Assembly: GCA_035546575.1 (NCBI GenBank)
Contig: DASZWN010000002.1
Coordinates: 257,056 to 321,055, forward strand
DNA from: Minisyncoccota bacterium
GTDB taxonomy: Bacteria > Patescibacteriota > Minisyncoccia > Phycocordibacterales > SBAW01
Length of the DNA stretch: 64,000 bases
Reading direction: 5' to 3'
Shown here: positions 1,457 to 60,794 of the stretch, piece after piece
Position numbering within the stretch: the stretch's first letter is position 1
Layout: every line of letters starts with the position of its first letter
Notes under the pieces: generated by a model
Told to the model about the DNA's origin: nothing
Seen by the model: the letters and a program-made list of their open reading frames with translations, nothing else
The model's database searches: none
Made by a program: the position numbers and the translations under genes

Positions 1457-2209
1457 TTACGGCAAGCACTGTACGCTAACCGAAAAGTTTGGCGAGAGAG
1501 TTGCGGTGCATACAATAGATTTGCGTTTATCCTCAAGTGCTTGCATGCGTGCACGGATATCGATAGCTCTGCTTTTAAGGCCGCTTATTTCGTTGCTCAT
1601 ATAGAGCGATGCGTGCCCTGCCTTAACGAGGCGGTCGGTGGTAGTGCCAAACGAGTTAAGTATCTTGGTGAGGTCGGAGGTTGCCGCAAGACTGATCATT
1701 GCCGTATCTGCACTGTGGTAGGTTTTGGCGTACGCTTTGTAGTGATAGAGATTCTCCAGATTCAGCTGATTGAGTGAGGCGATAGCCTTTTCTTTGCTTA
1801 ATTGGGCCGGGATAAACTCTACCCGTTTTATCTCGCTCATGAGTGCCTGGTTTCTATCGGTAATGTTGGGCGTGAGCGCCTGATAGCGGCGATACGCCTC
1901 AGCGAGTGCATCGGCAAACTTTTGGATTTTAGGGCTGTAACTGTTGACCGACTTGGTGCATTTTGCATCGCATACATTCCTGAGCTGGTTCGCGTAGTCA
2001 GCAACATCCTGTACAAACGGCTTAAGGATAGCGTACTCGCGCTCGCGGATCTCAATCTGCGCGTTGAGTTTTGCAAAATTTTCTACCGCGGTAAGAAGCT
2101 TGTCGTACTTTCTCGGAGTCTTCTTTATTACTGTTTGGGCGCTTGCCGCACCTGGCATAGCAGAAACAAGGACCGCCCCGAGCACTAGTGCCGCAATATA
2201 TGTCTTCAT
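1457..2209 (-). CDS. secreted hypothetical protein (Sec signal peptide)
   Basis: N-terminus MKTYIAALVLGAVLVSAMPGAASA; no recognisable domain. Confidence 0.5.
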   Translation of the reverse strand: MKTYIAALVLGAVLVSAMPGAASAQTVIKKTPRKYDKLLTAVENFAKLNAQIEIREREYAILKPFVQDVADYANQLRNVCDAKCTKSVNSYSPKIQKFADALAEAYRRYQALTPNITDRNQALMSEIKRVEFIPAQLSKEKAIASLNQLNLENLYHYKAYAKTYHSADTAMISLAATSDLTKILNSFGTTTDRLVKAGHASLYMSNEISGLKSRAIDIRARMQALEDKRKSIVCTATLSPNFSVSVQCLP

Positions 2210-23303: not shown

Positions 23304-24794
23304 TTAGTAGCCTCCATATTTGTCTACACACGCTTGAGATTGAGTATTGTCAGAATTCTGCACCCAAGGTTTATATCCGTCTTGTTGAACAAGGTATGCG
23401 GTTGTTTGAGCATTGCATAGATAGTTGTTAGCGGCTTCGAAACACGGTTGGCAGGCTGCAGTTTTAACTGCAACTCCATTTGCTCCTTTACACATTGCAG
23501 GACAGTTAAGTTCTCCTGTGGGGCTACAAGCAGATCCTACCAGCTTGTTTACTGTAATCATTACTTGCTGCGTGCCACAGGCATTACCATTACAACCAGT
23601 TGATCTGCCGCTATTCTCGGTCATAGCAATGCAAGACATCACATTAGCTTGCGCTGAGGTCAAACCTGCACTCATATAGGTATCTACACTGCAGTTAAGG
23701 TTAGTACATTGAGTCCCCGACCCTCCTTTGCTAGTCCTCCTAATCATAACCGGCTGCGCTATAACACTACCTTGAGCATTAACGCAGGCTTCCTGCTTGT
23801 CGTTATACGTACCCTGCTCGCAGGTAGCCACAACTTCTGTTGCAAGGACTGTGAGTTGAGCGCCTGGCGTACCCAGCACCTGTGTAAGAAGATCCCCAAT
23901 ATTTTTTCCTGTCGGCCTATCATCATTGTCTACGCATTCGATTTTATTCCACCCTTGGAAATACTTATCATTTAAGATCCCGTGCAAGATTGTTTCAATA
24001 ATAAGATAAGCGCCTAGAGCTACTACAAATCCTATAATGGCACTACTAAATATCGCTTTTGCATGCTCAATGTTGTGAAGATTGGTTGCAGAGGTGTAGT
24101 ACAACACTCCTGCCCACGCAAAGAGCGCCATCGCAATAGGAATGGAGAGACCAATTGCAAAGTTAATCACATTTTGTATGAGGCTCACTACACTGCAGGC
24201 TTGGCAGTCGGTGCCATTACATGGGATAAGACCACTTATCTGTCCGGAATTTGAGTTAGTAACACTATTACTTGTACCAGTAGTATTGGCTGATGTGTTA
24301 GTAGTATTGTTAGAATTGAGACTCGATCCTAGACTCCCCGCTTGAGGCGATTGCCCAGCAGCCTGAGATGACTGTTGCTGCGTAGAAGTAGGTTGAGGAT
24401 TTGGTACTACGGCTGGAGCGTCGGGACCGCCGATGTGGACTCTACCCTGAAGGTCGATGTAATTAGTTACTAGGAAATTACCGTCAGGATTTTTGATGTC
24501 TTGCCGGGTGCCAAGCTTGGTACCGGACGTATTCTTCCAGTCGGTGTACGTATAGACAAAGTTCGGCTGCGGCGAATCTATGGCAGATATAGCGCCATGC
24601 GTATCAATAAAATTACTAAAATATCTCCCGCTTATTACATCGTGCAAACCCTGTATTGTACCAACACCGTCACGGCCGGAATATGCGGTGTAAAAATAAT
24701 CGTTTGGAGACATCGGGGCAGCAAGAGCCATCAGCGGCAACAGGAGCCCGATACATGACGCAAAAAAGAGCAGGACACGGCGTCTAAAAGCCAT
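23304..24794 (-). CDS. secreted Cys-rich protein with an embedded VirB2/TrbC-like two-helix pilin-like domain
   Basis: signal peptide; S/T/N-rich linker; IQNVINFAIGLSIPIAMALFAWAGVLYY...AIFSSAIIGFVVALGAYLIIETIL matches the two-helix paralogs at 36007-37500; C-terminus has more than 20 Cys. Confidence 0.5.
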   Translation of the reverse strand: MAFRRRVLLFFASCIGLLLPLMALAAPMSPNDYFYTAYSGRDGVGTIQGLHDVISGRYFSNFIDTHGAISAIDSPQPNFVYTYTDWKNTSGTKLGTRQDIKNPDGNFLVTNYIDLQGRVHIGGPDAPAVVPNPQPTSTQQQSSQAAGQSPQAGSLGSSLNSNNTTNTSANTTGTSNSVTNSNSGQISGLIPCNGTDCQACSVVSLIQNVINFAIGLSIPIAMALFAWAGVLYYTSATNLHNIEHAKAIFSSAIIGFVVALGAYLIIETILHGILNDKYFQGWNKIECVDNDDRPTGKNIGDLLTQVLGTPGAQLTVLATEVVATCEQGTYNDKQEACVNAQGSVIAQPVMIRRTSKGGSGTQCTNLNCSVDTYMSAGLTSAQANVMSCIAMTENSGRSTGCNGNACGTQQVMITVNKLVGSACSPTGELNCPAMCKGANGVAVKTAACQPCFEAANNYLCNAQTTAYLVQQDGYKPWVQNSDNTQSQACVDKYGGY

Positions 24795-34430: not shown

Positions 34431-35477
34431 ATGCCCGATACAACGGCACCAGCGCCTGATCCCTCAAAAGAGGGATACTTTCTCGATTTACCCAGTCCGC
34501 GCGATAGCACGGTTGAGCGCGATCGAGCATCTCGTGCGCTCGACTTCGCGATCTCAACCATTGTGCTGTGGGGCGGACCGATCGTTCTCCTCCTCTGGTG
34601 GTCAATGTTGGTGTCTCCCTCACTCGCACCCTTCGCGATCCTGATCGGATTCGTGATCGGCGCATTCCTGGAATATCTGGGGACGCAGAAGCTGATCATC
34701 TACAACGAGGAATGGACGGCCTATGCGACAAACGACCCGTTTAGCGGGGACAACGTCGCATACGGACCGGGAGCCCATCTGTCCCACTTCTGGGAACAGC
34801 GCAACAAGAGCGGTATCTATTCGCTCGAGCGCATAACCAGGGTGTTTACCGTCGATGTGGCGACGACGACCAGCAAGGTCACGGCAACCGTTACCTACCA
34901 ATACGCCGTGTACTTGCCTTGGTTGCTCAACTTCATCGGCAACGACATATCGACAATCGAGAGCGGCTTCATCGGCTTTCTCCAAAGCTTCCTCACGGAA
35001 AAACTCGCCGGAGATACCGCCGAAAGTGCGCGGAAGAAAATCCGCGAACTGAACACCTTACTTGCGCAGGAGTTCATGCAGGTTAAAAACCTCGCAGGAA
35101 CGAGTGCGCGGGAATTCGAGGAAAAGAACGGGATTCTTAGTGTGAGCATCCTGATTACCGGGCTCGCATTGCCGGAAGCCGTTCAGAAAACTCGCGACGC
35201 CGTCGAGGAAGCGCGAGTCCTGATGGAAGTTGCCGCTCGGATGATGGGCAAGGATCCTGAAAAATTCATGCAGCAAGTGCTTGATGGAACGATCCCGTGG
35301 TCGCAGTACGAGAAGATCCTCAACCGCGCCATGGCTGTCTCCGAGAACGCACAGCTGGAGCTGTTTGCGGTCGAAGGAGATATCGGCAATCTTGGAGCCG
35401 CTGCTCTTGCTCGCTTTGCCAAGCATGGTCTTGGCGGCGGCGAAGAAGGCGGCAAGAAAAAAGGTAAAGGAAAGTGA
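34431..35477 (+). CDS. membrane protein (2 TM), possibly SPFH/band-7-like
   Basis: two TM helices, then a roughly 250 aa domain, then a Gly/Lys-rich tail; family assignment is weak. Confidence 0.45.
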   Translation: MPDTTAPAPDPSKEGYFLDLPSPRDSTVERDRASRALDFAISTIVLWGGPIVLLLWWSMLVSPSLAPFAILIGFVIGAFLEYLGTQKLIIYNEEWTAYATNDPFSGDNVAYGPGAHLSHFWEQRNKSGIYSLERITRVFTVDVATTTSKVTATVTYQYAVYLPWLLNFIGNDISTIESGFIGFLQSFLTEKLAGDTAESARKKIRELNTLLAQEFMQVKNLAGTSAREFEEKNGILSVSILITGLALPEAVQKTRDAVEEARVLMEVAARMMGKDPEKFMQQVLDGTIPWSQYEKILNRAMAVSENAQLELFAVEGDIGNLGAAALARFAKHGLGGGEEGGKKKGKGK

Positions 35478-49371: not shown

Positions 49372-49929
49372 ATGCCACAGGAGAATCGTGATAACTTTTT
49401 CACCGAACTCCTGAAATTTGCTCTCATTGCCATCATCATTGTCGTCCCGCTGCGCATTTTTGTAGCAAAACCGTTCATTGTATCGGGTGCCTCGATGGAG
49501 CCAACGTTCGACACCGGCCAATACTTGATTGTCGACGAGCTCTCCTATCGTCTTGAGGCACCGCAGCGCCTCGATGTCGTTATTTTTAAGTATCCGCGCG
49601 ATACCTCGCAATATTTCATCAAACGTATCATCGGGCTGCCTGGCGAAACCGTGATCATCTCCGGCGGGCAAGTATCTATCAAGACAGCAGACGGTAAAAC
49701 AGTAGCGCTCAGCGAGCCGTACATTAAAAACCTTGGTAACGGCGGCGACATGCAGGTAACTCTCAAGACAGATGAGTACTTTGTGATGGGTGACAATCGG
49801 CCAGAGAGCTCCGACTCGCGCATTTGGGGAGTGCTCCCGCGCGCAGACATTGTTGGCCGCGCATTTTTGCGACTGCTCCCCGTCTCGACCCTTGGCGTAT
49901 TCCCCGGCAGCGCAACCGCACAGCAGTAA
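49372..49929 (+). CDS. lepB: signal peptidase I
   Basis: SGASMEPT (Ser box), KRIIGLPGE, GDNRPESSDSR; start re-derived at 49372. Confidence 0.85.
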   Translation: MPQENRDNFFTELLKFALIAIIIVVPLRIFVAKPFIVSGASMEPTFDTGQYLIVDELSYRLEAPQRLDVVIFKYPRDTSQYFIKRIIGLPGETVIISGGQVSIKTADGKTVALSEPYIKNLGNGGDMQVTLKTDEYFVMGDNRPESSDSRIWGVLPRADIVGRAFLRLLPVSTLGVFPGSATAQQ

Positions 49930-49936
49930 TATCGCA

Positions 49937-51124
49937 ATGAGCACCTCTTCATCATCTTCTCGCTCCCCGCATCGCGAAGCGTCCGCTTCATTCATTAAAC
50001 ACGCAAGCGAGGTGGCGAGTTTTTACGGATTCCGCCCCGTACGCGAGATCGAAAAGGAGCATCGTGCGCAATCAGATGTAAAAAATCAAAAACGCATGGG
50101 CCAGGGCGTCTACTCGTTCCAAAGCGCCGCACTTATCGGCGCCGCGCGCGCTGCGTCACGACCGCAAGACCCGGTACTCGCGTTTTATGCAACGCCCGTG
50201 CCAGAACATACCCCAAGTGCGGTACCTCAGCGCGAGGCTGGAGAATTTGGGCTCCAAGTAATTGGGACTCAGGAGAGCGTCGGCGAAATCGTGCTGCTTA
50301 AAACAATTACTATGATCGCCTCTGAATGGGGCACGCCGCTTATGAAAGTGCGCGTCAACGCGCTAGGCGACAAAGACTCTCAGCAGCGCTTCGCGCGCGA
50401 GCTGGGCGGCTACCTGCGCAAACATCTCGACGAGATCGACGAGGCGCTCCGGCGCGGCGTGATGGACGATCCATTCTCGTTTTACCGGATAGGTACGCAG
50501 GTGAGCCGCGATATTCTGGCCGAGGGTCCGCGGCCGATGCATTTCCTTTCAGAAAAGAGCCGCGTGCATTTCCGCTCGGTGCTTGAACATCTCGAGCATC
50601 TTGGCGTGCCGTATGAGCTTGACGATCTTTTAGGCGGCGACGAGCGTGGGCCGCATATTGCCTTTGCGCTCGATTTTGCCGAGGGAGACACGACCATTTT
50701 GGGCGCGCTTGGCGGCCGTTTTGACGAGTACCTTAAACGCGAAACGCATCGCAAAGACTCCGCGGGCGCGGGCGCTTCAATCTACTTCCGCAAAAAGGGC
50801 GCGAACAAGACAAACTTTATGGCGCAGGTGCCGCCGATCAAGCCGAAGATATACTTCGCCCAGCTCGGGCTGCGCGCCAAACTGCAGGGACTCGCCGTTG
50901 TAGATATGCTTCGAGTTGCTCATGTACCGGTGCTCCAATCGTTTGACGCCGCTCGGCTCTCCAACCAGCTTGCTACCGCAGCGCAGCTTGGAGTCTCTCA
51001 CCTGTTTATTATGGGCCAGCGCGAGGCTCTGGACGGCACTATAATTGTGCGCTCGACCCGAAACAGCTCGCAGAACATCATTAGCCTAAACGACGTACCC
51101 CGCTTCCTGCGCAGCTTGCGCTAG
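49937..51124 (+). CDS. divergent class II aaRS-like protein of the HisRS family (histidyl-tRNA synthetase or a HisZ-like paralog) with an anticodon-binding-type C-terminal domain
   Basis: GALGGRFDEY resembles HisRS motif 3 (GGGRYD); the C-terminal ...LFIMGQREALDGTIIVRS resembles the HGTP anticodon domain; the N-terminal motifs are divergent. Confidence 0.45.
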   Translation: MSTSSSSSRSPHREASASFIKHASEVASFYGFRPVREIEKEHRAQSDVKNQKRMGQGVYSFQSAALIGAARAASRPQDPVLAFYATPVPEHTPSAVPQREAGEFGLQVIGTQESVGEIVLLKTITMIASEWGTPLMKVRVNALGDKDSQQRFARELGGYLRKHLDEIDEALRRGVMDDPFSFYRIGTQVSRDILAEGPRPMHFLSEKSRVHFRSVLEHLEHLGVPYELDDLLGGDERGPHIAFALDFAEGDTTILGALGGRFDEYLKRETHRKDSAGAGASIYFRKKGANKTNFMAQVPPIKPKIYFAQLGLRAKLQGLAVVDMLRVAHVPVLQSFDAARLSNQLATAAQLGVSHLFIMGQREALDGTIIVRSTRNSSQNIISLNDVPRFLRSLR

Positions 51125-51424: not shown

Positions 51425-51826
51425 ATGGGGTCAACTTTTTCTCTCAGTAATAAGACGCGCAGGAACCTCCCTCGCGTCCCTTTTCGTCTTATAAAAGAAA
51501 GCATACTCGGTAAAGAGTATGATCTTTCTGTGGCACTGGTCCCGCCGGCCCAGATGCGCTCGATAACCCTCAAGACAAAAAACAAAGACAAAGTTTCTAA
51601 CGTACTGTCGTTCCCGCTCACCGAAAACTCCGGCGAAATACTCATCTGTCCAACGGCCGCAGCTCCGTATACGGTTGGCTATTTGTTTATCCACGGTTGT
51701 CTGCACCTTAAGGGCCATAAACATAGTGATACAATGGAGCGCATTGAGCACGCCCTGCTTAAGCGCTTCGAGCTATGCAAAAAATCGTCACAGGAATCGA
51801 CATCGGCACGTACCAGGTCAAGGTAG
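51425..51826 (+). CDS. ybeY: endoribonuclease YbeY (rRNA maturation factor)
   Basis: HGCLHLKGHKH matches the YbeY H-x3-H-x5-H metal motif; the 3' end overlaps ftsA by about 50 nt. Confidence 0.7.
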   Translation: MGSTFSLSNKTRRNLPRVPFRLIKESILGKEYDLSVALVPPAQMRSITLKTKNKDKVSNVLSFPLTENSGEILICPTAAAPYTVGYLFIHGCLHLKGHKHSDTMERIEHALLKRFELCKKSSQESTSARTRSR

Positions 51827-52953
51827 TTATTGCCGCACGTCCGGAGCATCACGGCGAGCCTCCAAAAATCCTCGGTACCGGCTACGCGGAGAGCCGCGGC
51901 ATGAAGCAGGGCTACATACTCTCGATCCCCGAAGTCTCTCGCTCCATAGCCGCAGCAGTTGTACAAGCCTCTAAAGCCGCGCAGGTAAAGGTGAAGCGCG
52001 CTTACATCGGGATCGGCGGCGTTGGGCTGGACGAGGCCTTCTCGCGGGGCGAGACGGTTGTTGAGCGCGGCGACTCGGAGATCAGCTATCGCGACACTAC
52101 GCGGGTACTCTCGGCTGCCGAGGGCGCACTTTCGCCTGCCGCGCTCCTTAATCGCAAAGTACTGCACACCATTCCCCTGCGCTACTCGGTAGACGGCGTG
52201 CGCGTGATGGGCCGCTCGCCTATCGGCATGAAGGGCATGCGGCTCTCCGCTGAGACGCTTTTTATCACGTGTCTCGACAGGCACGTAAACGACCTCGTTG
52301 CCGCAGTGGAGGAAGCCGGGATCGAGGTCGAGGACATTGCAGCCTCGCCGCTTGCGGCAAGTTTTGTCGCACTTTCAAAGATGCAGAAGCGCGTCGGCTG
52401 CGTGCTCGCAAACATCGGGTCCGAAACACTTTCGATAATCGTATTTGAGGACGGCATTCCGATTTCGGTACGCGTGTTCCCTGTGGGCGCGGCCGACATT
52501 ACGCACGACATCGCGCTCGGTCTGCGCATTTCTCCCGAAGATGCCGAGCAGCTCAAACAAGGCGCTGTGTTGGGGGCCCCGTTTCCGCAGCGCAAGATCG
52601 ACGATCTCATCTCGCGCCGCGTGTCCGACATGTTTAAGCTGGTTGAAGCGCAGCTCAAAAAAATCGGCAAGAACGAGCTCCTGCCGGCTGGCATTGTGCT
52701 CACGGGCGGCGGCTCATCAGTCCAGACTATTTCCGATCTTGCAAAAGCAGTGCTGCGCCTCCCCTCGCGCGTCGCATCGCTCTCCGAGGGCGTCGGCTCA
52801 AAAGTACATCTCAAAGACGGCTCATGGGCGGTAGCCTACGGCCTTACTATATGGGGCTTTACCCAAGGCGAAGACGGCGAGGGTTCGCCGGGCGCCGGTT
52901 TGCGCGACGTACTGCGCATGTTTGTGCATTGGCTCCAGAAGTTCCTGCCGTAG
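51775..52953 (+). CDS. ftsA: cell division protein FtsA
   Basis: actin-fold motifs (GIDIGTYQVKVV; IGIGGVGLDE; VLTGGGS). Confidence 0.85.
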   Translation: MQKIVTGIDIGTYQVKVVIAARPEHHGEPPKILGTGYAESRGMKQGYILSIPEVSRSIAAAVVQASKAAQVKVKRAYIGIGGVGLDEAFSRGETVVERGDSEISYRDTTRVLSAAEGALSPAALLNRKVLHTIPLRYSVDGVRVMGRSPIGMKGMRLSAETLFITCLDRHVNDLVAAVEEAGIEVEDIAASPLAASFVALSKMQKRVGCVLANIGSETLSIIVFEDGIPISVRVFPVGAADITHDIALGLRISPEDAEQLKQGAVLGAPFPQRKIDDLISRRVSDMFKLVEAQLKKIGKNELLPAGIVLTGGGSSVQTISDLAKAVLRLPSRVASLSEGVGSKVHLKDGSWAVAYGLTIWGFTQGEDGEGSPGAGLRDVLRMFVHWLQKFLP

Positions 52954-52983
52954 TAGACAGAACAAAAGAGTAAAAAGTCAAAC

Positions 52984-53003
52984 CCTGCCTGCCGGCAGGC
53001 AGG
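52984..53003. repeat. palindrome A copy (intergenic; extended 28 bp perfect palindrome AAACCCTGCCTGCCGGCAGGCAGGGTTT)
   Basis: read directly. Confidence 0.9.
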
Positions 53004-53152
53004 GTTTGCATTATAGGCAGGGGTGGTATACTTCTACAACTGCTCTTCTATAGTCTCCTCACGTGTTACAGCGGTGCAAAGAGCAATCTTTGCATCTCAC
53101 CTCGTGCGCGACTATACTAGGCGGCGCTACTTACCAAACACTTTTACACTTT

Positions 53153-54322
53153 ATGCCACAAGTACAACCAGACATTGAAGCATTCGCTCGGATCCGCGTC
53201 GTTGGTGTGGGCGGCTCTGGAAACAATGCGGTCAATCACATGGTTGAGGCAAAGGTCCGCGGCGTTGATTTTATCGCGGTCAATACCGACGCGCAGGATC
53301 TCCATCACAGCTTAGCCAAGAAAAAGATCCATATCGGCAAAAATTTAACGCGCGGTCTCGGCACCGGCATGAACCCAGAGTTGGGCAAGCGCGCCGCCGA
53401 CGAAACAAAAGAGGAAATCCAGCAGGCCATGAAGGGCAGCGACATGGTGTTTGTAGCCGGCGGCATGGGCGGCGGCACGGGCACGGGCGCCGCGCCGGTT
53501 GTCGCAAAAACAGCTAAAGAGTCCGGAGCGCTCACCGTTGCGGTGGTTACCAAACCATTCTCATTTGAGGGCGCGCAGCGCCTGCGCTTGGCTGAGCAGG
53601 GTCTCGACGAGCTCAGAAAAGAGGTGGACGCGCTTATCGTGATCCCCAACGACCGCTTACTTGCAACCGTTGCAAAAGAGACAACGCTTAAAGACGCATT
53701 TGCGATGTGCGACGATGTGCTCAAACAAGCGGTCGAGGGTATTTCCGATCTCATCACCAACCCAGGTATTATAAACGTCGACTTTGCCGATGTACGCGCG
53801 GTTATGGAAAACTCCGGTTCGGCGCTCATGGGTATCGGCATCGCTTCGGGTGAGAATCGCGCGCAAGCTGCAGCACAGGCAGCGGTCTCTTCTCCTCTTC
53901 TTGAGCTTTCGATCAACGGCGCAAAAGGTGTCTTGTTTGCTATCGCAGGCGGCGAGGACCTCGGCATGGTCGAGGTACACGAGGCGGCAAAGATCATCAC
54001 CGAGTCGGTCGACCCGAATGCAAAGATCATCTTTGGCGCCATCAAGGACGACAAGCTCAAAAAGAACGAGATCCGCGTAACGGTTATCGCAACCGGCTTC
54101 CCTGCTGCTGGCATCAACCCGCGCGGTACGCAGCTCTTCACCTTCTCGCGCGAGAAGGATAAGGAAGCAGATGCGCAACCGCTCGGTAAGATCTACAACG
54201 CTCCAGCTATGCCGATTAAGGACGAAAAGGCCGACTCTAACACCAAACCAAAACCCGAGGATAAAGAAGAGGACGATTGGGGCGCTGTCCCTTCGTTTTT
54301 GCGAAGACCTAAGATTAAATAA
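53153..54322 (+). CDS. ftsZ: cell division protein FtsZ
   Basis: GGGTGTG tubulin signature; start re-derived at MPQVQP. Confidence 0.95.
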
Positions 54323-56980: not shown

Positions 56981-57505
56981 ATGAATCGGAGGCAATTTCT
57001 GGTCTCTGGCGGTTCGTTGTTCGCGCTTGCGCTTGGTCCGTCGATAACGATGGCTGTGCCGGTCGCACCGTTCGTACCGCCGACAACCAACATCGTGCAT
57101 CTCGCCGGCCGGATCGCCAGTCTATACTCGATTCCTTCCGACGACCTTCTCCATATACTGGGTCTCAACCCGGATCAGGTCGAGAAGGTAAAGGAGGAAG
57201 CCGCGCAAGCTATATACGCCGACGAAAACAGAAATTGGTTGAACCCTGAAAAGGCTCAATACTACGCTGAATTGGACGGGGTGCATTCGCTCGCCGAAGG
57301 CGGCAACCAGGATATCTACGAGCGAGCCCGGCTGGTGATCGATATCAAACGCAAGATGAACACGCGCTTCAACTTCGATCGCGTGCTGCAGACCGACTGG
57401 CTGTATTGGACTAATCCGCATCTGAAGGGCATGACCTTTCACGAGGTCATGAAGGCCGACCTGCGTTTAGCAGCGGAGGTCGTCGATCTGGCTTTGCAGG
57501 GTTAA
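56981..57505 (+). CDS. secreted protein with a twin-arginine (Tat-type) signal peptide
   Basis: MNRRQFLVSGGSLFALALG...AVP; no known domain. Confidence 0.45.
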   Translation: MNRRQFLVSGGSLFALALGPSITMAVPVAPFVPPTTNIVHLAGRIASLYSIPSDDLLHILGLNPDQVEKVKEEAAQAIYADENRNWLNPEKAQYYAELDGVHSLAEGGNQDIYERARLVIDIKRKMNTRFNFDRVLQTDWLYWTNPHLKGMTFHEVMKADLRLAAEVVDLALQG

Positions 57506-57853: not shown

Positions 57854-57925
57854 TGACCCTACCGGGAATCGAACCCGGATTAACGGCTTGAAAAGCCGGC
57901 GTCCTAACCGTTAGACGATAGGGCC
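57854..57925 (-). tRNA. tRNA-Glu(TTC)
   Basis: GGCCCTA...TAGGGTCA; anticodon loop TTTTCAA; T-loop GGTTCGATTCC. Confidence 0.65.
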
Positions 57926-57926
57926 G

Positions 57927-58013
57927 CGGAGAGGGAGAGATTCGAACTCTCGATCCAGTTTCCCAGATGCCGGTTTTCGAAACCGGTGCCTTCGACCACT
58001 CAGCCACCTCTCC
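57927..58013 (-). tRNA. tRNA-Ser(CGA)
   Basis: GGAGAGG acceptor, anticodon loop TTCGAAA, long variable arm, T-loop GAGTTCGAATCTC. Confidence 0.8.
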
Positions 58014-58235: not shown

Positions 58236-58913
58236 ATGCAAGCAGTGATTCTGGCAGCAGGAGAAGGAGTGCGCATGCGGCCGCTCACACTTGAGCGGCC
58301 TAAGCCGCTCATTGAAGTGGCTGGCATGCCGATACTCGAGCATGTCGTGCGTGCGCTACCTCAAGAAGTCGACCAGATCATTCTGGTTGTAAAATACATG
58401 CAGGAAAAAATCCGCAAGTACTGTGGCGATAACTTCTTTGGTAAGAAAATCACCTATGTTGAGCAGGGCGAACACAAAGGTACTGCTGCAGCACTTACTT
58501 ACGCAAAGCCGTTTTTAAAAGATCGTTTTCTTGTTACCTTTGCTGACGATATTTTGGCAAAACAAGACCTTGAAGAGCTTACTAAACATGAATATGCATG
58601 GCTGGTAACAGAAAGTGATACACCAGAGCGTTTTGGCGTCGTGTCGCTCAACCCCGACGGCACACTACGTACAATCATAGAAAAACCAGAACATCCGGAA
58701 ACAAATTTAATATCGACCGGCGTGGCAGTACTTACGCAAAAAATCTTTGACTACACACCGAGCAAAGACAAAGGCGAGCTTGGCATACCGGGAATGATCA
58801 CTGCATTGGCAAAAGACTTCCCTGTTGCTGTTGTAAAGGCCTCTTTTTGGCAACCAGTTGGATACATTGAACATATTGCAGTTGCAGAAACTGCTCTAGC
58901 AATACGTTCATAA
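58236..58913 (+). CDS. sugar-phosphate nucleotidyltransferase (NTP_transferase family)
   Basis: MQAVILAAGEGVRMRPLT...KPL. Confidence 0.8.
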   Translation: MQAVILAAGEGVRMRPLTLERPKPLIEVAGMPILEHVVRALPQEVDQIILVVKYMQEKIRKYCGDNFFGKKITYVEQGEHKGTAAALTYAKPFLKDRFLVTFADDILAKQDLEELTKHEYAWLVTESDTPERFGVVSLNPDGTLRTIIEKPEHPETNLISTGVAVLTQKIFDYTPSKDKGELGIPGMITALAKDFPVAVVKASFWQPVGYIEHIAVAETALAIRS

Positions 58914-58989: not shown

Positions 58990-59211
58990 ATGAAACTTCT
59001 AAAGAAAACATTTCAGGTCAGTACTGCATCGCTTCTGGCATGGACCGTGGCTGGCATTGCCTCAGCACAAACTACAGCAACTACTACGCCGGGAGTACCC
59101 AACACTGGCGCGGGCGGCGACACGATTCTCAACCTCGTGATCCTCGCAATTGCGGCAGTGGTCGTTGCAGCAGGCGTAGCATTCCTCAGCTCTCGATGGG
59201 CACAGGTATAG
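58990..59211 (+). CDS. minimal sortase substrate: signal peptide, about 13 aa Thr-rich peptide, and a cell-wall sorting signal (VPNTG, hydrophobic stretch, basic tail)
   Basis: MKLLKKTFQVSTASLLAWTVAGIASA | QTTATTTPG-VPNTG-AGGDTILNLVILAIAAVVVAAGVAFL-SSRWAQV. Confidence 0.55.
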   Translation: MKLLKKTFQVSTASLLAWTVAGIASAQTTATTTPGVPNTGAGGDTILNLVILAIAAVVVAAGVAFLSSRWAQV

Positions 59212-59224
59212 CGTTTCTTTAAAA

Positions 59225-59254
59225 ACAGCGGGTGCTCACAGCGGCACCCGCTGT
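59225..59254 (+). promoter_or_regulatory. intergenic hairpin between the substrate gene and the sortase gene (possible attenuator)
   Basis: ACAGCGGGTGC-TCACAGCG-GCACCCGCTGT, an 11 bp stem with no T-run. Confidence 0.4.
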
Positions 59255-59270
59255 TCGTCGTATCACAGCT

Positions 59271-59912
59271 ATGAGAGAGAAAGTCCTTATTGCAACGGTA
59301 GGTATTGTGACGCTGGCGGCAGCGGGGGTGTTTGCCTCTACCTTTGCGCATGCAATGTGGTACTCCTCTCCAGACGACATCGAGGTTGCGGCCAGTCCAA
59401 CTGTTTGGGGCGATGCCGCCTCAGCCACCGCAACCTCAACAACCGGTAGCTATGTGCTGCGCGACTCGGGTATGCGTTTGAGGATCCCCGCTATTGCGCT
59501 TGATGCTCGCGTGCAGAGTGTCGGTGTTTCCAAAAGCGGCAATATGGCGGTGCCGACCAATTACACCGACGTGGGCTGGTATCGAGGCGGAACCAAGCCG
59601 GGCGATATCGGTAGCGCTGTGATTAACGGACACGTGGATAATGGATTTGGGTTACCAGCAGTGTTTCGCCATCTGACTGACCTTTCAGTTGGCAGCGATA
59701 TTTTTATAGAAACAGCCGGGGGCAAAGAGCTCCATTTTGTAGTAACCGACATAGAGACATATGCCGCGAGCGATGTGCCGCTCGACGAGCTCTTCAACCG
59801 CAGCGATACAGCAAGGCTTAATCTGATAACCTGTGCCGGAGAATGGCTACCCGACAGGCAGGCCTACGACCACCGCACAGTCGTATATAGCGAGCTCATG
59901 AATGACAACTGA
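59271..59912 (+). CDS. sortase (transpeptidase)
   Basis: N-terminal TM, His in VINGHVD, catalytic LITCAG (TLxTC) motif, conserved Arg downstream. Confidence 0.8.
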   Translation: MREKVLIATVGIVTLAAAGVFASTFAHAMWYSSPDDIEVAASPTVWGDAASATATSTTGSYVLRDSGMRLRIPAIALDARVQSVGVSKSGNMAVPTNYTDVGWYRGGTKPGDIGSAVINGHVDNGFGLPAVFRHLTDLSVGSDIFIETAGGKELHFVVTDIETYAASDVPLDELFNRSDTARLNLITCAGEWLPDRQAYDHRTVVYSELMNDN

Positions 59913-59939: not shown

Positions 59940-60015
59940 GCGCGGTTAGCTCAGTTGGTAGAGCGTCCCCTTGACGTGGGGAAGGTCACAGGTTCGATCC
60001 CTGTATCGCGCACCA
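59940..60015 (+). tRNA. tRNA-Val(GAC)
   Basis: anticodon loop TTGACGT; CCA encoded. Confidence 0.8.
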
Positions 60016-60794
60016 TGAAACTGGTGTCGCTAAACGCATGGGGCGGGACTCAATTCAACCAGCTGCTTTCTTTTGTAGAAAAGCACGCAAACTCCACCGA
60101 CGTCTTTTGCTTTCAGGAAGTAGCGGTATCCGAGCGTATACAGAGCAAGGAAGAAAAACCTCGCCATAACTTATTGCGCGACTTATCTGAAGTGCTGCCT
60201 GGATTCCAGGTTATATATGCTCCATTTCAAGAAGGATTTAATTGGGAGCCTATAGAAAAAGATATTGCCTTGTGTAACGCAATGTTTGTTCGCAATGGTC
60301 TTAACATTCTTGAGCACGGCCATGTATTTGTGCACGGCGAAAAGAACGGTTTAGACTTTGCGCAGGCAGCAGAGGGCAACTGGTATACCATGCCTCGCCT
60401 GGTGCAGTTTACGCAGATAGATGGCTTCCCCACTATTTTTAACTTCCACGGTTTTTGGCATAAAGACGGCAAGCACGACACGCCCGAACGCATCAAACAG
60501 TCTGAGAAAATAGTCGAGGTTGTACAAAAGTTTAATAATCCGCGCATTTTGTGCGGAGACTTTAACCTCAATATCGATACCGAAAGTCTGGCTATGCTTG
60601 AAGACCGCGGCGGTCTGCGCAACTTAATCAAGGATCACAAAATTGGCACGACCCGCAGCGACCTGTATCCTAAAAAGTCGATCATGCCCTATGCCGACTA
60701 TATGTTTGTCTCGCCCGATATTACTATCAACTCCTTTTCGGTACCCGATGAGCCGGCATCCGACCATTTGCCCATGATCCTTGAATTCAAATGA
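60015..60794 (+). CDS. endonuclease/exonuclease/phosphatase (EEP) family protein; the start codon overlaps the last nt of the tRNA-Val CCA
   Basis: CGDFN and SDHLP motifs; ATG at 60015-60017. Confidence 0.75.
   Translation: MKLVSLNAWGGTQFNQLLSFVEKHANSTDVFCFQEVAVSERIQSKEEKPRHNLLRDLSEVLPGFQVIYAPFQEGFNWEPIEKDIALCNAMFVRNGLNILEHGHVFVHGEKNGLDFAQAAEGNWYTMPRLVQFTQIDGFPTIFNFHGFWHKDGKHDTPERIKQSEKIVEVVQKFNNPRILCGDFNLNIDTESLAMLEDRGGLRNLIKDHKIGTTRSDLYPKKSIMPYADYMFVSPDITINSFSVPDEPASDHLPMILEFK

Follow-up and report, generated by a model that had tools for sequence, protein, structure and literature searches.

Sortases are usually seen as enzymes that display functional surface proteins, and the locus described here raises the question of why the substrate that normally accompanies the sortases of an entire clade is almost passenger-free. 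The locus lies in a stretch of 64,000 nucleotides from a Minisyncoccota bacterium (contig DASZWN010000002.1), hereafter called the window, whose own numbering is used for all coordinates. It comprises three elements on the forward strand: a gene for a protein of 73 residues consisting of scarcely more than a sorting signal (the mini substrate), an RNA hairpin, and a sortase gene. Our comparative analysis shows that these elements constitute a conserved cassette of Paceibacteria, a lineage of the Candidate Phyla Radiation (CPR), in which a 'headless' substrate, a strong hairpin and a membrane-anchored class F-like sortase are combined; the stub of the substrate would probably be anchored to peptidoglycan.

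The mini substrate and its sortase

The open reading frame (ORF) of the mini substrate (58990-59211 including the stop codon, forward strand) translates as MKLLKKTFQVSTASLLAWTVAGIASA|QTTATTTPG-VPNTG-AGGDTILNLVILAIAAVVVAAGVAFLSSRWAQV. Independent gene callers predicted it as a gene in two independent assemblies, and the NCBI annotation lists its product as a hypothetical protein (P0173). Residues 1-26 (58990-59067) form a predicted signal peptide with a basic n-region, a hydrophobic core and an A-S-A site before Gln27, as judged by rule and not by SignalP; Ala26 and Gln27 are invariant in the alignments of the mini-substrate family. The entire 'passenger' is the Thr-rich stub QTTATTTPG (59068-59094). 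Next comes the sortase recognition pentapeptide VPNTG (residues 36-40 of 73; 59095-59109), which reads TPGVPNTGAGGD together with its flanking residues and was assigned from the sequence and from the consensus in relatives. An AGGD linker, a transmembrane hydrophobic stretch of about 25 residues and the tail SSRWAQV complete the protein (59110-59208). All the parts listed in the original prediction, that is, a signal peptide, QTTATTTPG, VPNTG, a hydrophobic stretch and the tail SSRWAQV, are present in the sequence. Predicted cuts after ASA26 and between Thr39 and Gly40 would give an anchored part of 13 residues, QTTATTTPGVPNT, in agreement with the earlier estimate of about 13 Thr-rich residues, and would leave a transmembrane peptide of 34 residues. 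No other ORF within the 64-kb window carries a sorting signal.

The downstream gene (59271-59912 including the stop codon, forward strand) encodes a protein of 213 residues, which was examined by family models, homologs and structure modelling. It matches the Pfam family PF04203 (peptidase C60) with 70.9 bits (gathering cut-off 26.6, E-value 1.1e-19). Among the NCBIfam sortase classes, class F (NF033748) is the best match with 125.6 bits and an E-value of 1.3e-36, which is 30 orders of magnitude ahead of the second-best class (8.5e-07); the class C model reached an E-value of 4e-4. Because the score of 125.6 bits is below the class F cut-off of 166, the enzyme is here referred to as class F-like and not as a member, and it is a divergent CPR branch near class F. 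All of its 213 residues agree with those of a protein from Candidatus Paceibacterota bacterium that NCBI names 'class F sortase' (P0001), which places the window in a metagenome-assembled genome of the CPR/Patescibacteria.

An alignment of 33 homologs showed that His121 (in VINGHVD, codon 59631-59633), Cys188 (in LITCAG, 59832-59834) and Arg202 (in DHRTVVY, 59874-59876) are invariant. The same alignment and the NCBI annotation place the start at ATG 59271 (MREK...), and an upstream start at GTG 59232 was rejected. Residues 2-31 (59274-59363), helical in the model, form an N-terminal membrane anchor ending in the A-x-A-like sequence AHA, in which Ala28 is invariant in the 33 homologs; this end resembles a signal-peptidase site. 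In the alignment-based model (mean predicted local distance difference test score 86.3), the N-terminal helix is followed by a beta-barrel. A fold search with this model gave 116 PDB matches at an E-value of at most 0.001, and the 50 listed are all sortases (best E-value 6.1e-10). In a profile search for solved structures the best match was 4d70 (E-value 2.4e-7), and no close relative of the enzyme was among them. A cytochrome match from a single-sequence PDB search was judged to be spurious. On the basis of the family model, the invariant His/Cys/Arg residues and the fold, the enzyme is assigned as a sortase, as had been claimed from the first inspection of the sequence, with predicted transpeptidase activity.

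The conservation of this gene pair was analyzed by searching one genome per species for relatives of the sortase, which yielded 80 loci, all from Paceibacteria-type metagenome-assembled genomes (Kaiserbacteria, Adlerbacteria, Nomurabacteria, Taylorbacteria and Parcubacteria). A locus was considered paired if the sortase was preceded on its own strand by a sorting-signal ORF ending within 450 nt of it, and 58 loci were identified in this way. This raw count had to be corrected: two of the pairs (L030 and L062) were spurious, one locus with the motif VGNTG (L022) had been missed and was added, and five loci had no upstream DNA. After correction, a sorting-signal gene immediately precedes the sortase in the same orientation at about 57 of 75 informative loci, and in three or four others such a gene is present near the sortase on the opposite strand. 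Most of the partners are mini versions, which span many genera and accompany sortases with identities down to about 45%. The other neighbours found in the window (thioredoxin reductase, Nudix, sugar-1-phosphate nucleotidyltransferase, endonuclease/exonuclease/phosphatase (EEP)-family protein and TsaD) were absent or rare in the 80 related loci; thus, the substrate-sortase pair itself is the conserved unit and no accident of one genome. The original prediction had been made dependent on conservation of the small ORF next to sortase homologs, and such conservation is what we found. In a subclade of the sortase loci (17-25 of 80, between L003 and L082), the upstream flank contains an M10-like HExxH metalloprotease and a small Ala/Lys-rich protein, and the downstream flank a DHODH-like gene, a beta-lactamase-like serine hydrolase and GlmS. 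Some of these recurrent flanking genes are wall-related, and their recurrence may be plain synteny.

To date, sorting-signal proteins of this kind have mostly been annotated as hypothetical. Translation starts and signal-peptide sites were set by rule in 55 upstream genes, 54 of which entered the length statistics (L006 was excluded because its site was mis-assigned). The anchored part remaining after both cuts ranges from 10 to 431 residues and is shorter than 50 residues in 36 of the 54 proteins. Thr accounts for 47% of the short passengers, the remainder being chiefly Gly, Ser, Pro and Ala, and Lys is present in one of 33 mini passengers. The signal shared by the 55 genes is considerably longer than a pentapeptide, with the consensus TPG-[TVAL]PNTG-xGG-[ND]AAxN followed by a transmembrane stretch and YLxRR. 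Within the pentapeptide, Pro, Thr and Gly are near-invariant and Leu occupies the first position in 5 of 55 genes; past it, relatives keep GG (+6/+7) and Asn (+12). Longer occupants of the upstream slot include a protein with an Ice_binding domain (L079) and proteins with repeated Cys-pair modules (L050, L068 and L081), and are otherwise unannotated.

A word-indexed search with a profile of the mini protein detected 323 relatives of 66-100 residues, nearly all named 'hypothetical protein' and none with a Pfam domain. When 1.84 billion cluster representatives were searched exhaustively with a hidden Markov model, 488 clusters (50% identity) were found at an E-value of at most 0.001, and the best 150 of these were mostly 60-135 residues long. 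The closest pairs of mini genes have pN/pS values of 0.22-0.29 and are under purifying selection. The 73-residue protein is a typical member of a sizeable, selected and undescribed family. Considering that most members are annotated as hypothetical and that their signal lies outside the Pfam and NCBIfam models, a family model would improve the annotation of several hundred clusters.

Gln directly follows the signal peptide in 52 of the 54 upstream genes. The idea that Gln27 might be a special nucleophile was dropped because A-x-A|Q is common among clearly secreted proteins that are not substrates. It should be noted that a Gln start after A-x-A was observed in such proteins at L003, L013, L069 and L075 and in the window itself (1457-2209, reverse strand), and that several of them continue with Thr-rich sequence (QTTNTN, QTASTTTV, QTYTTGTT and QTSTSTGTTT). 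Gln plus Thr-rich starts may be a general habit of these lineages. The background rate of Gln at +1 was approached with two home-made signal-peptide predictors, which were too crude for a clean figure.

The hairpin between the genes

The two genes are separated by a spacer of 59 nt, and a hairpin was found in it both by RNA folding and by a scan for perfect stems (59224-59255, forward strand; 12 perfect pairs, or 13 in the RNA fold, with a loop of 6-8 nt). As the sortase starts at ATG 59271, the hairpin is fully intergenic. An 11-bp stem at 59225-59254 had been reported previously; its intergenic position stands, whereas the span is now 59224-59255 and the stem 12-13 bp. The stem contains eight G-C pairs, and the folding energy is -29.7 kcal/mol, with a z-score of -5.35 against 200 shuffled sequences. 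Perfect stems of at least 9 bp are rare in the window, with 13 in all 64 kb, this hairpin included.

A stem at this position is widespread among the relatives. In the 65 nt that begin with the substrate stop codon at 58 loci, the mean z-score was -2.0 relative to random windows of the same locus, and 64% of the loci were below -1.5. Stems of at least 11 bp occurred within 90 nt of the substrate stop at 41 of 56 genuine loci, compared with 6.9% of random windows; for stems of at least 9 bp, the corresponding values were 47 of 56 loci and 27%. The hairpin sequences differ between loci; thus, structure and position are what is conserved. No family was matched when Rfam was searched with the hairpin.

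Two further observations concern this part of the locus. In the fold of the whole spacer (59207-59273), an outer helix pairs the region of the substrate stop codon (UAUAGC) with the start region of the sortase (GCUAUG), and such a helix could couple or mask sortase translation. In addition, a 13-bp perfect hairpin is located at 52979-53008 between ftsA (51775-52953) and ftsZ (53063-54322), both on the forward strand, with an A tract before it and no U tract. As the two hairpins are built alike, the genome may generally make use of such stems between genes.

Proposed role and competing explanations

The reading that we favor follows the general sortase mechanism (reviewed in PMC8225981; see also the introduction of PMC13293333). 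The 73-residue precursor would be exported by the Sec pathway and cut by signal peptidase after ASA26, and its C-terminal helix and Arg tail would retain it in the membrane. Cys188 of the sortase would then attack the Thr39-Gly40 bond of VPNTG, and the 13 residues would be joined to lipid II, the precursor of peptidoglycan, through one of its amino groups. The expected product is a short hydrophilic wall peptide and not a displayed protein, in other words a wall-spanning stalk rich in Pro, Gly, Thr and Ser but without a head. To judge from the conserved position of the hairpin, most transcripts probably end or are stabilized there, behind the substrate gene, which would result in a large excess of substrate over enzyme.

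What the stub would do in the wall is a matter of speculation; it might alter the chemistry of the wall, take up amines used in cross-linking or bear O-glycans. A more novel possibility, at present rather unlikely, is that the mini protein is an abundant wall-modifying peptide of 10-30 residues, Thr-rich and possibly O-glycosylated, which caps a sizeable share of the stem-peptide amino groups. If this were true, it would represent a protein-encoded counterpart of teichoic acids or Braun lipoprotein in bacteria with tiny genomes, and it would be the first physiological role assigned to class F-like sortases, which would then modify wall chemistry instead of displaying proteins. A role as glycan carrier is not supported, the Thr-richness of the stub being the sole point in its favor: all-versus-all clustering of the flanking ORFs of the 80 loci revealed no recurrent LCP or PMT-type glycosylation gene, and the adjacent nucleotidyltransferase gene is not conserved and therefore provides no support for glycosylation.

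Several observations weigh against the favored reading. The tail SSRWAQV of the mini substrate contains a single Arg, whereas relatives mostly have RR, RRR or RK. No curated sorting-signal model reaches its cut-off on the protein: Pfam, including Gram_pos_anchor, gave no match, and the best NCBIfam match, NPXTG, scored 20.9 bits against a cut-off of 23.5. The sorting signal is a separate variant outside the curated models. Neither a promoter nor a ribosome-binding site was recognized before either of the two genes. A peptide of 13 residues would be buried in the wall, and its usefulness is a guess. With regard to the hairpin, a canonical intrinsic (Rho-independent) terminator was considered and rejected: the stem-loop is G+C-rich as required, but no U tract follows the stem on the coding strand, where CGTCGTATC / CGTCGT comes next. 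The terminator scan of the window gave no canonical terminator at this position, and a strict test for a U tail was passed by only 2 of 47 relatives. The hairpin may not terminate transcription at all, and might pause or stabilize transcripts. The earlier idea that it sets the stoichiometry of substrate and enzyme is strengthened by the retention of the stem in position at 41 of 56 loci and weakened by the missing U tract and terminator call.

The clients of the sortase have to be considered as well. Metagenome contigs were scanned with a degenerate DNA pattern for TPGxPNTGxGG, and the 80 loci obtained mostly encoded unrelated, Gly-rich proteins in which TPGxPNTGGGG is a chance match; 26 carried genuine signals. 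Among the 25 of these with enough downstream DNA, a sortase was located downstream on the same strand in 12 and in convergent orientation in 3, and about 10 (~40%), mostly longer proteins, had no sortase in the locus. The main clients of the sortase may accordingly be proteins other than the mini substrate. Since the same extended signal is present on proteins without an adjacent sortase, the enzyme probably also serves other, larger proteins. On the other side, Thr-rich low-complexity signal proteins adjoined a sortase in seven of eight cases. The original description of a dedicated sortase for a tiny peptide was therefore overstated, since the anchored part of slot occupants in relatives can reach about 430 residues and about 10 of the 25 signals have no sortase in the locus. 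Two groups of proteins from the same scan deserve mention. The first (L084, L085, L095, L100, L106, L108 and others) has TPGxPNTGGGGGG followed by Gly-rich repeats of the GGSGIVIIRY type, without a sorting signal, and looks like a separate widespread repeat family. The second (L130, L155, L160 and L086) consists of high-G+C proteins of about 230-270 residues whose C-terminal part comprises ATPGLPNTGAGGG, a membrane-spanning segment and a tail rich in Arg; no sortase gene lies close to them, and the extended TPGxPNTGxGG signal may not be confined to Paceibacteria.

Other explanations of the gene pair should be compared with wall anchoring of the stub. The slot upstream of the sortase might be a place for variable surface proteins, in which case the mini forms would be leftovers after loss of the head and the stub would be idle, or at most keep the operon and the sortase in use. 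The real domains in the slot of distant relatives (Ice_binding and the Cys-pair modules), the continuum of passenger lengths from 10 to 431 residues and the longer proteins with the same signal elsewhere are all consistent with such decay. We nevertheless consider it unlikely, as the mini forms are the majority over many genera and a wide range of sortase identities and comprise 488 clusters, and as they keep their Thr content and flanking motifs and evolve under purifying selection; useless remnants would not be expected to persist so long in such small genomes. A different role, as a partner or regulator of the sortase, would have the mini protein or the leftover 34-residue transmembrane peptide bind the sortase anchor and govern how stable or active the enzyme is, or signal whether the sortase is working. 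A precedent is SafA, a small transmembrane protein that is linked to a housekeeping sortase and acts on the enzyme: in Actinomyces, the A-x-A-type anchor site of SrtA is cleaved unless SafA protects it (PMC9282373). The anchor of the sortase studied here ends in a comparable conserved site with its invariant Ala28, and residues past the cleavage site of the mini substrate (GG and Asn at +12) are unusually conserved. However, SafA is encoded downstream, has 52 residues and an FPW motif and lacks a cleavable signal peptide, none of which is true of the mini protein, and a SafA-like partner was rejected on position, size, topology and motif. With conservation centred on a textbook xPxTG motif and ordinary large substrates in the same slot of relatives, regulation of the sortase appears rather improbable, although the A-x-A-like end of the anchor would leave room for some interplay with signal peptidase.

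It is also conceivable that the peptide is never attached to the wall. If the acyl intermediate were resolved by water or by the amine of its own N terminus, a free or cyclic Thr-rich peptide would result, with a layout resembling that of ribosomally synthesized and post-translationally modified peptides. Lantibiotic operons have the order precursor gene, attenuating hairpin and enzyme gene, and the present layout is similar to such precursor-enzyme operons; the Gln after the signal peptide in 52 of 54 proteins might be taken in the same sense. We regard this outcome as very improbable. The passengers are of low complexity and free to vary in both length and sequence, which is ill-suited to a specific bioactive peptide, and an initial Gln is shared by many other proteins that these lineages secrete. 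Furthermore, N-terminal Gln tends to cyclize to pyroglutamate, which would block the amine, and we know of no natural cyclic peptide made by a sortase. Finally, the original prediction had mentioned a pilus-tip adaptor, that is, a mini protein built into, or terminating, a sortase-assembled pilus. Apart from the general association of sortases with pili and the many class C sortases among the listed fold matches, nothing points in this direction: the anchored part contains no Lys nucleophile, pilin motif, Ig-like domain or other folded domain, Lys being confined to the single mini passenger mentioned above; neither the window nor the flanks of the 80 loci contain a second sortase or a pilin gene; and the class F score is far above that of class C (1.3e-36 versus 4e-4). 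This idea is regarded as highly implausible.

Genomic setting and comparison with known systems

The window has a G+C content of 52%. A sugar-1-phosphate nucleotidyltransferase gene on the forward strand ends at 58913, directly 5' of the mini-substrate ORF, and tRNA-Val (59940-60015, forward strand) begins 28 nt past the sortase stop codon, followed on the same strand by the EEP-family gene and tsaD. The remaining genes are core housekeeping genes, for example, those for DNA polymerase III, SerRS, topoisomerase I, RelA/SpoT, ParB, ClpB, GlmS, IF-2, GyrA, S1, FtsA and FtsZ. The ATG of the EEP-family gene (60015) abuts the 3' end of tRNA-Val, and the automatic calls on L001 and L002 that start inside this tRNA at 59976 (59976-60794) are probably wrong. 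tRNA-Glu (57854-57925) and tRNA-Ser (57926-58013) on the reverse strand abut each other with zero spacer. In otherwise housekeeping surroundings, a 496-residue protein (23304-24794, reverse strand) shows a weak match to a type IV secretion system pilin domain (PF18895, 28 bits versus a cut-off of 26.6). Three sizeable ORFs on the forward strand had no Pfam match at an E-value of at most 1e-5: 34431-35477 (348 residues), 49790-51124 (444 residues) and 56981-57505 (174 residues), the last of which starts with a twin-arginine-like signal, MNRRQFLVSGG....

Neighbouring genes for a sortase and its target are known from other bacteria; the class GN 'marine' sortase, for example, sits beside its own full-size target protein. 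As in AbpA-SrtB of oral streptococci (PMC4974636), the genes for the enzyme and its cognate substrate are adjacent here and the signal is a private, non-LPXTG one. Unlike the full-size functional substrate AbpA, the passenger is usually 10-30 residues long, and the signal is also found on non-adjacent proteins. The enzyme resembles class F sortases in its His-Cys-Arg triad, its N-terminal anchor, its xPxTG-type signal and its best class score. It differs from SrtF of Propionibacterium acnes, whose signal is of the LPXTG type, in that [TVA]PNTG is embedded in a longer conserved motif and the class F score is 125.6 as against the required 166. SrtF is the only characterized member of class F. 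The physiological role of the class is reported to be unknown, and an Actinoplanes mutant lacking four class F sortases had no phenotype (PMC13251363).

Two substrates from other bacteria show that a 'headless' substrate can matter. SspA of Actinoplanes (PMC13293333) likewise has a wall-anchored mature part without a folded domain, but its precursor has 191 residues and about 115 disordered residues are anchored, which is about ten times the length of the present stub. GspA of Actinomyces oris (PMC6381275) is a sortase substrate that serves mainly as a glycan carrier and is linked to a gene for an LCP glycosyl-phosphotransferase; in contrast, no LCP gene accompanies the cassette in the flanks of the 80 loci. 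The SafA system (PMC9282373) and the present one both include a small protein that crosses the membrane once and whose gene is linked to that of a sortase, and in both the sortase anchor carries an A-x-A-like site. SafA is encoded downstream of the sortase and has an FPW motif and no sorting motif, whereas the mini gene lies upstream and encodes a cleavable signal peptide and PNTG.

The retention of a near-headless substrate in many genera of a large uncultivated lineage suggests that it helps to shape the wall itself, and the cassette bears on both the poorly understood CPR envelope and the role of class F sortases. It also offers a short, easily synthesized candidate substrate for the enzyme, TTPGVPNTGAGGD, and a defined muropeptide adduct.

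With regard to the product, Braun lipoprotein (Lpp) provides the closest analogy in size. Lpp is lipidated, its C-terminal Lys is joined to peptidoglycan by L,D-transpeptidases, and it tethers the outer membrane. Both Lpp, which is abundant, and the mini substrate are very small secreted proteins, with covalent attachment to peptidoglycan by a transpeptidase being predicted for the latter; unlike Lpp, no counterpart of lipidation or of an outer-membrane tether is encoded in the cassette. With regard to the gene order, intercistronic hairpins in pilin and lantibiotic precursor operons set mRNA ratios. Here, too, a strong stem-loop separates a small precursor gene from the gene of a putative processing enzyme, but it lacks a U tract. 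Sortases have been noted in more than half of CPR genomes (PMC6744442), and a limited literature search found no description of CPR sortase substrates or of such a cassette. Compared with all these systems, the distinguishing features here are a family-wide passenger of 10-30 residues, an extended sorting signal and a conserved hairpin between the two genes.

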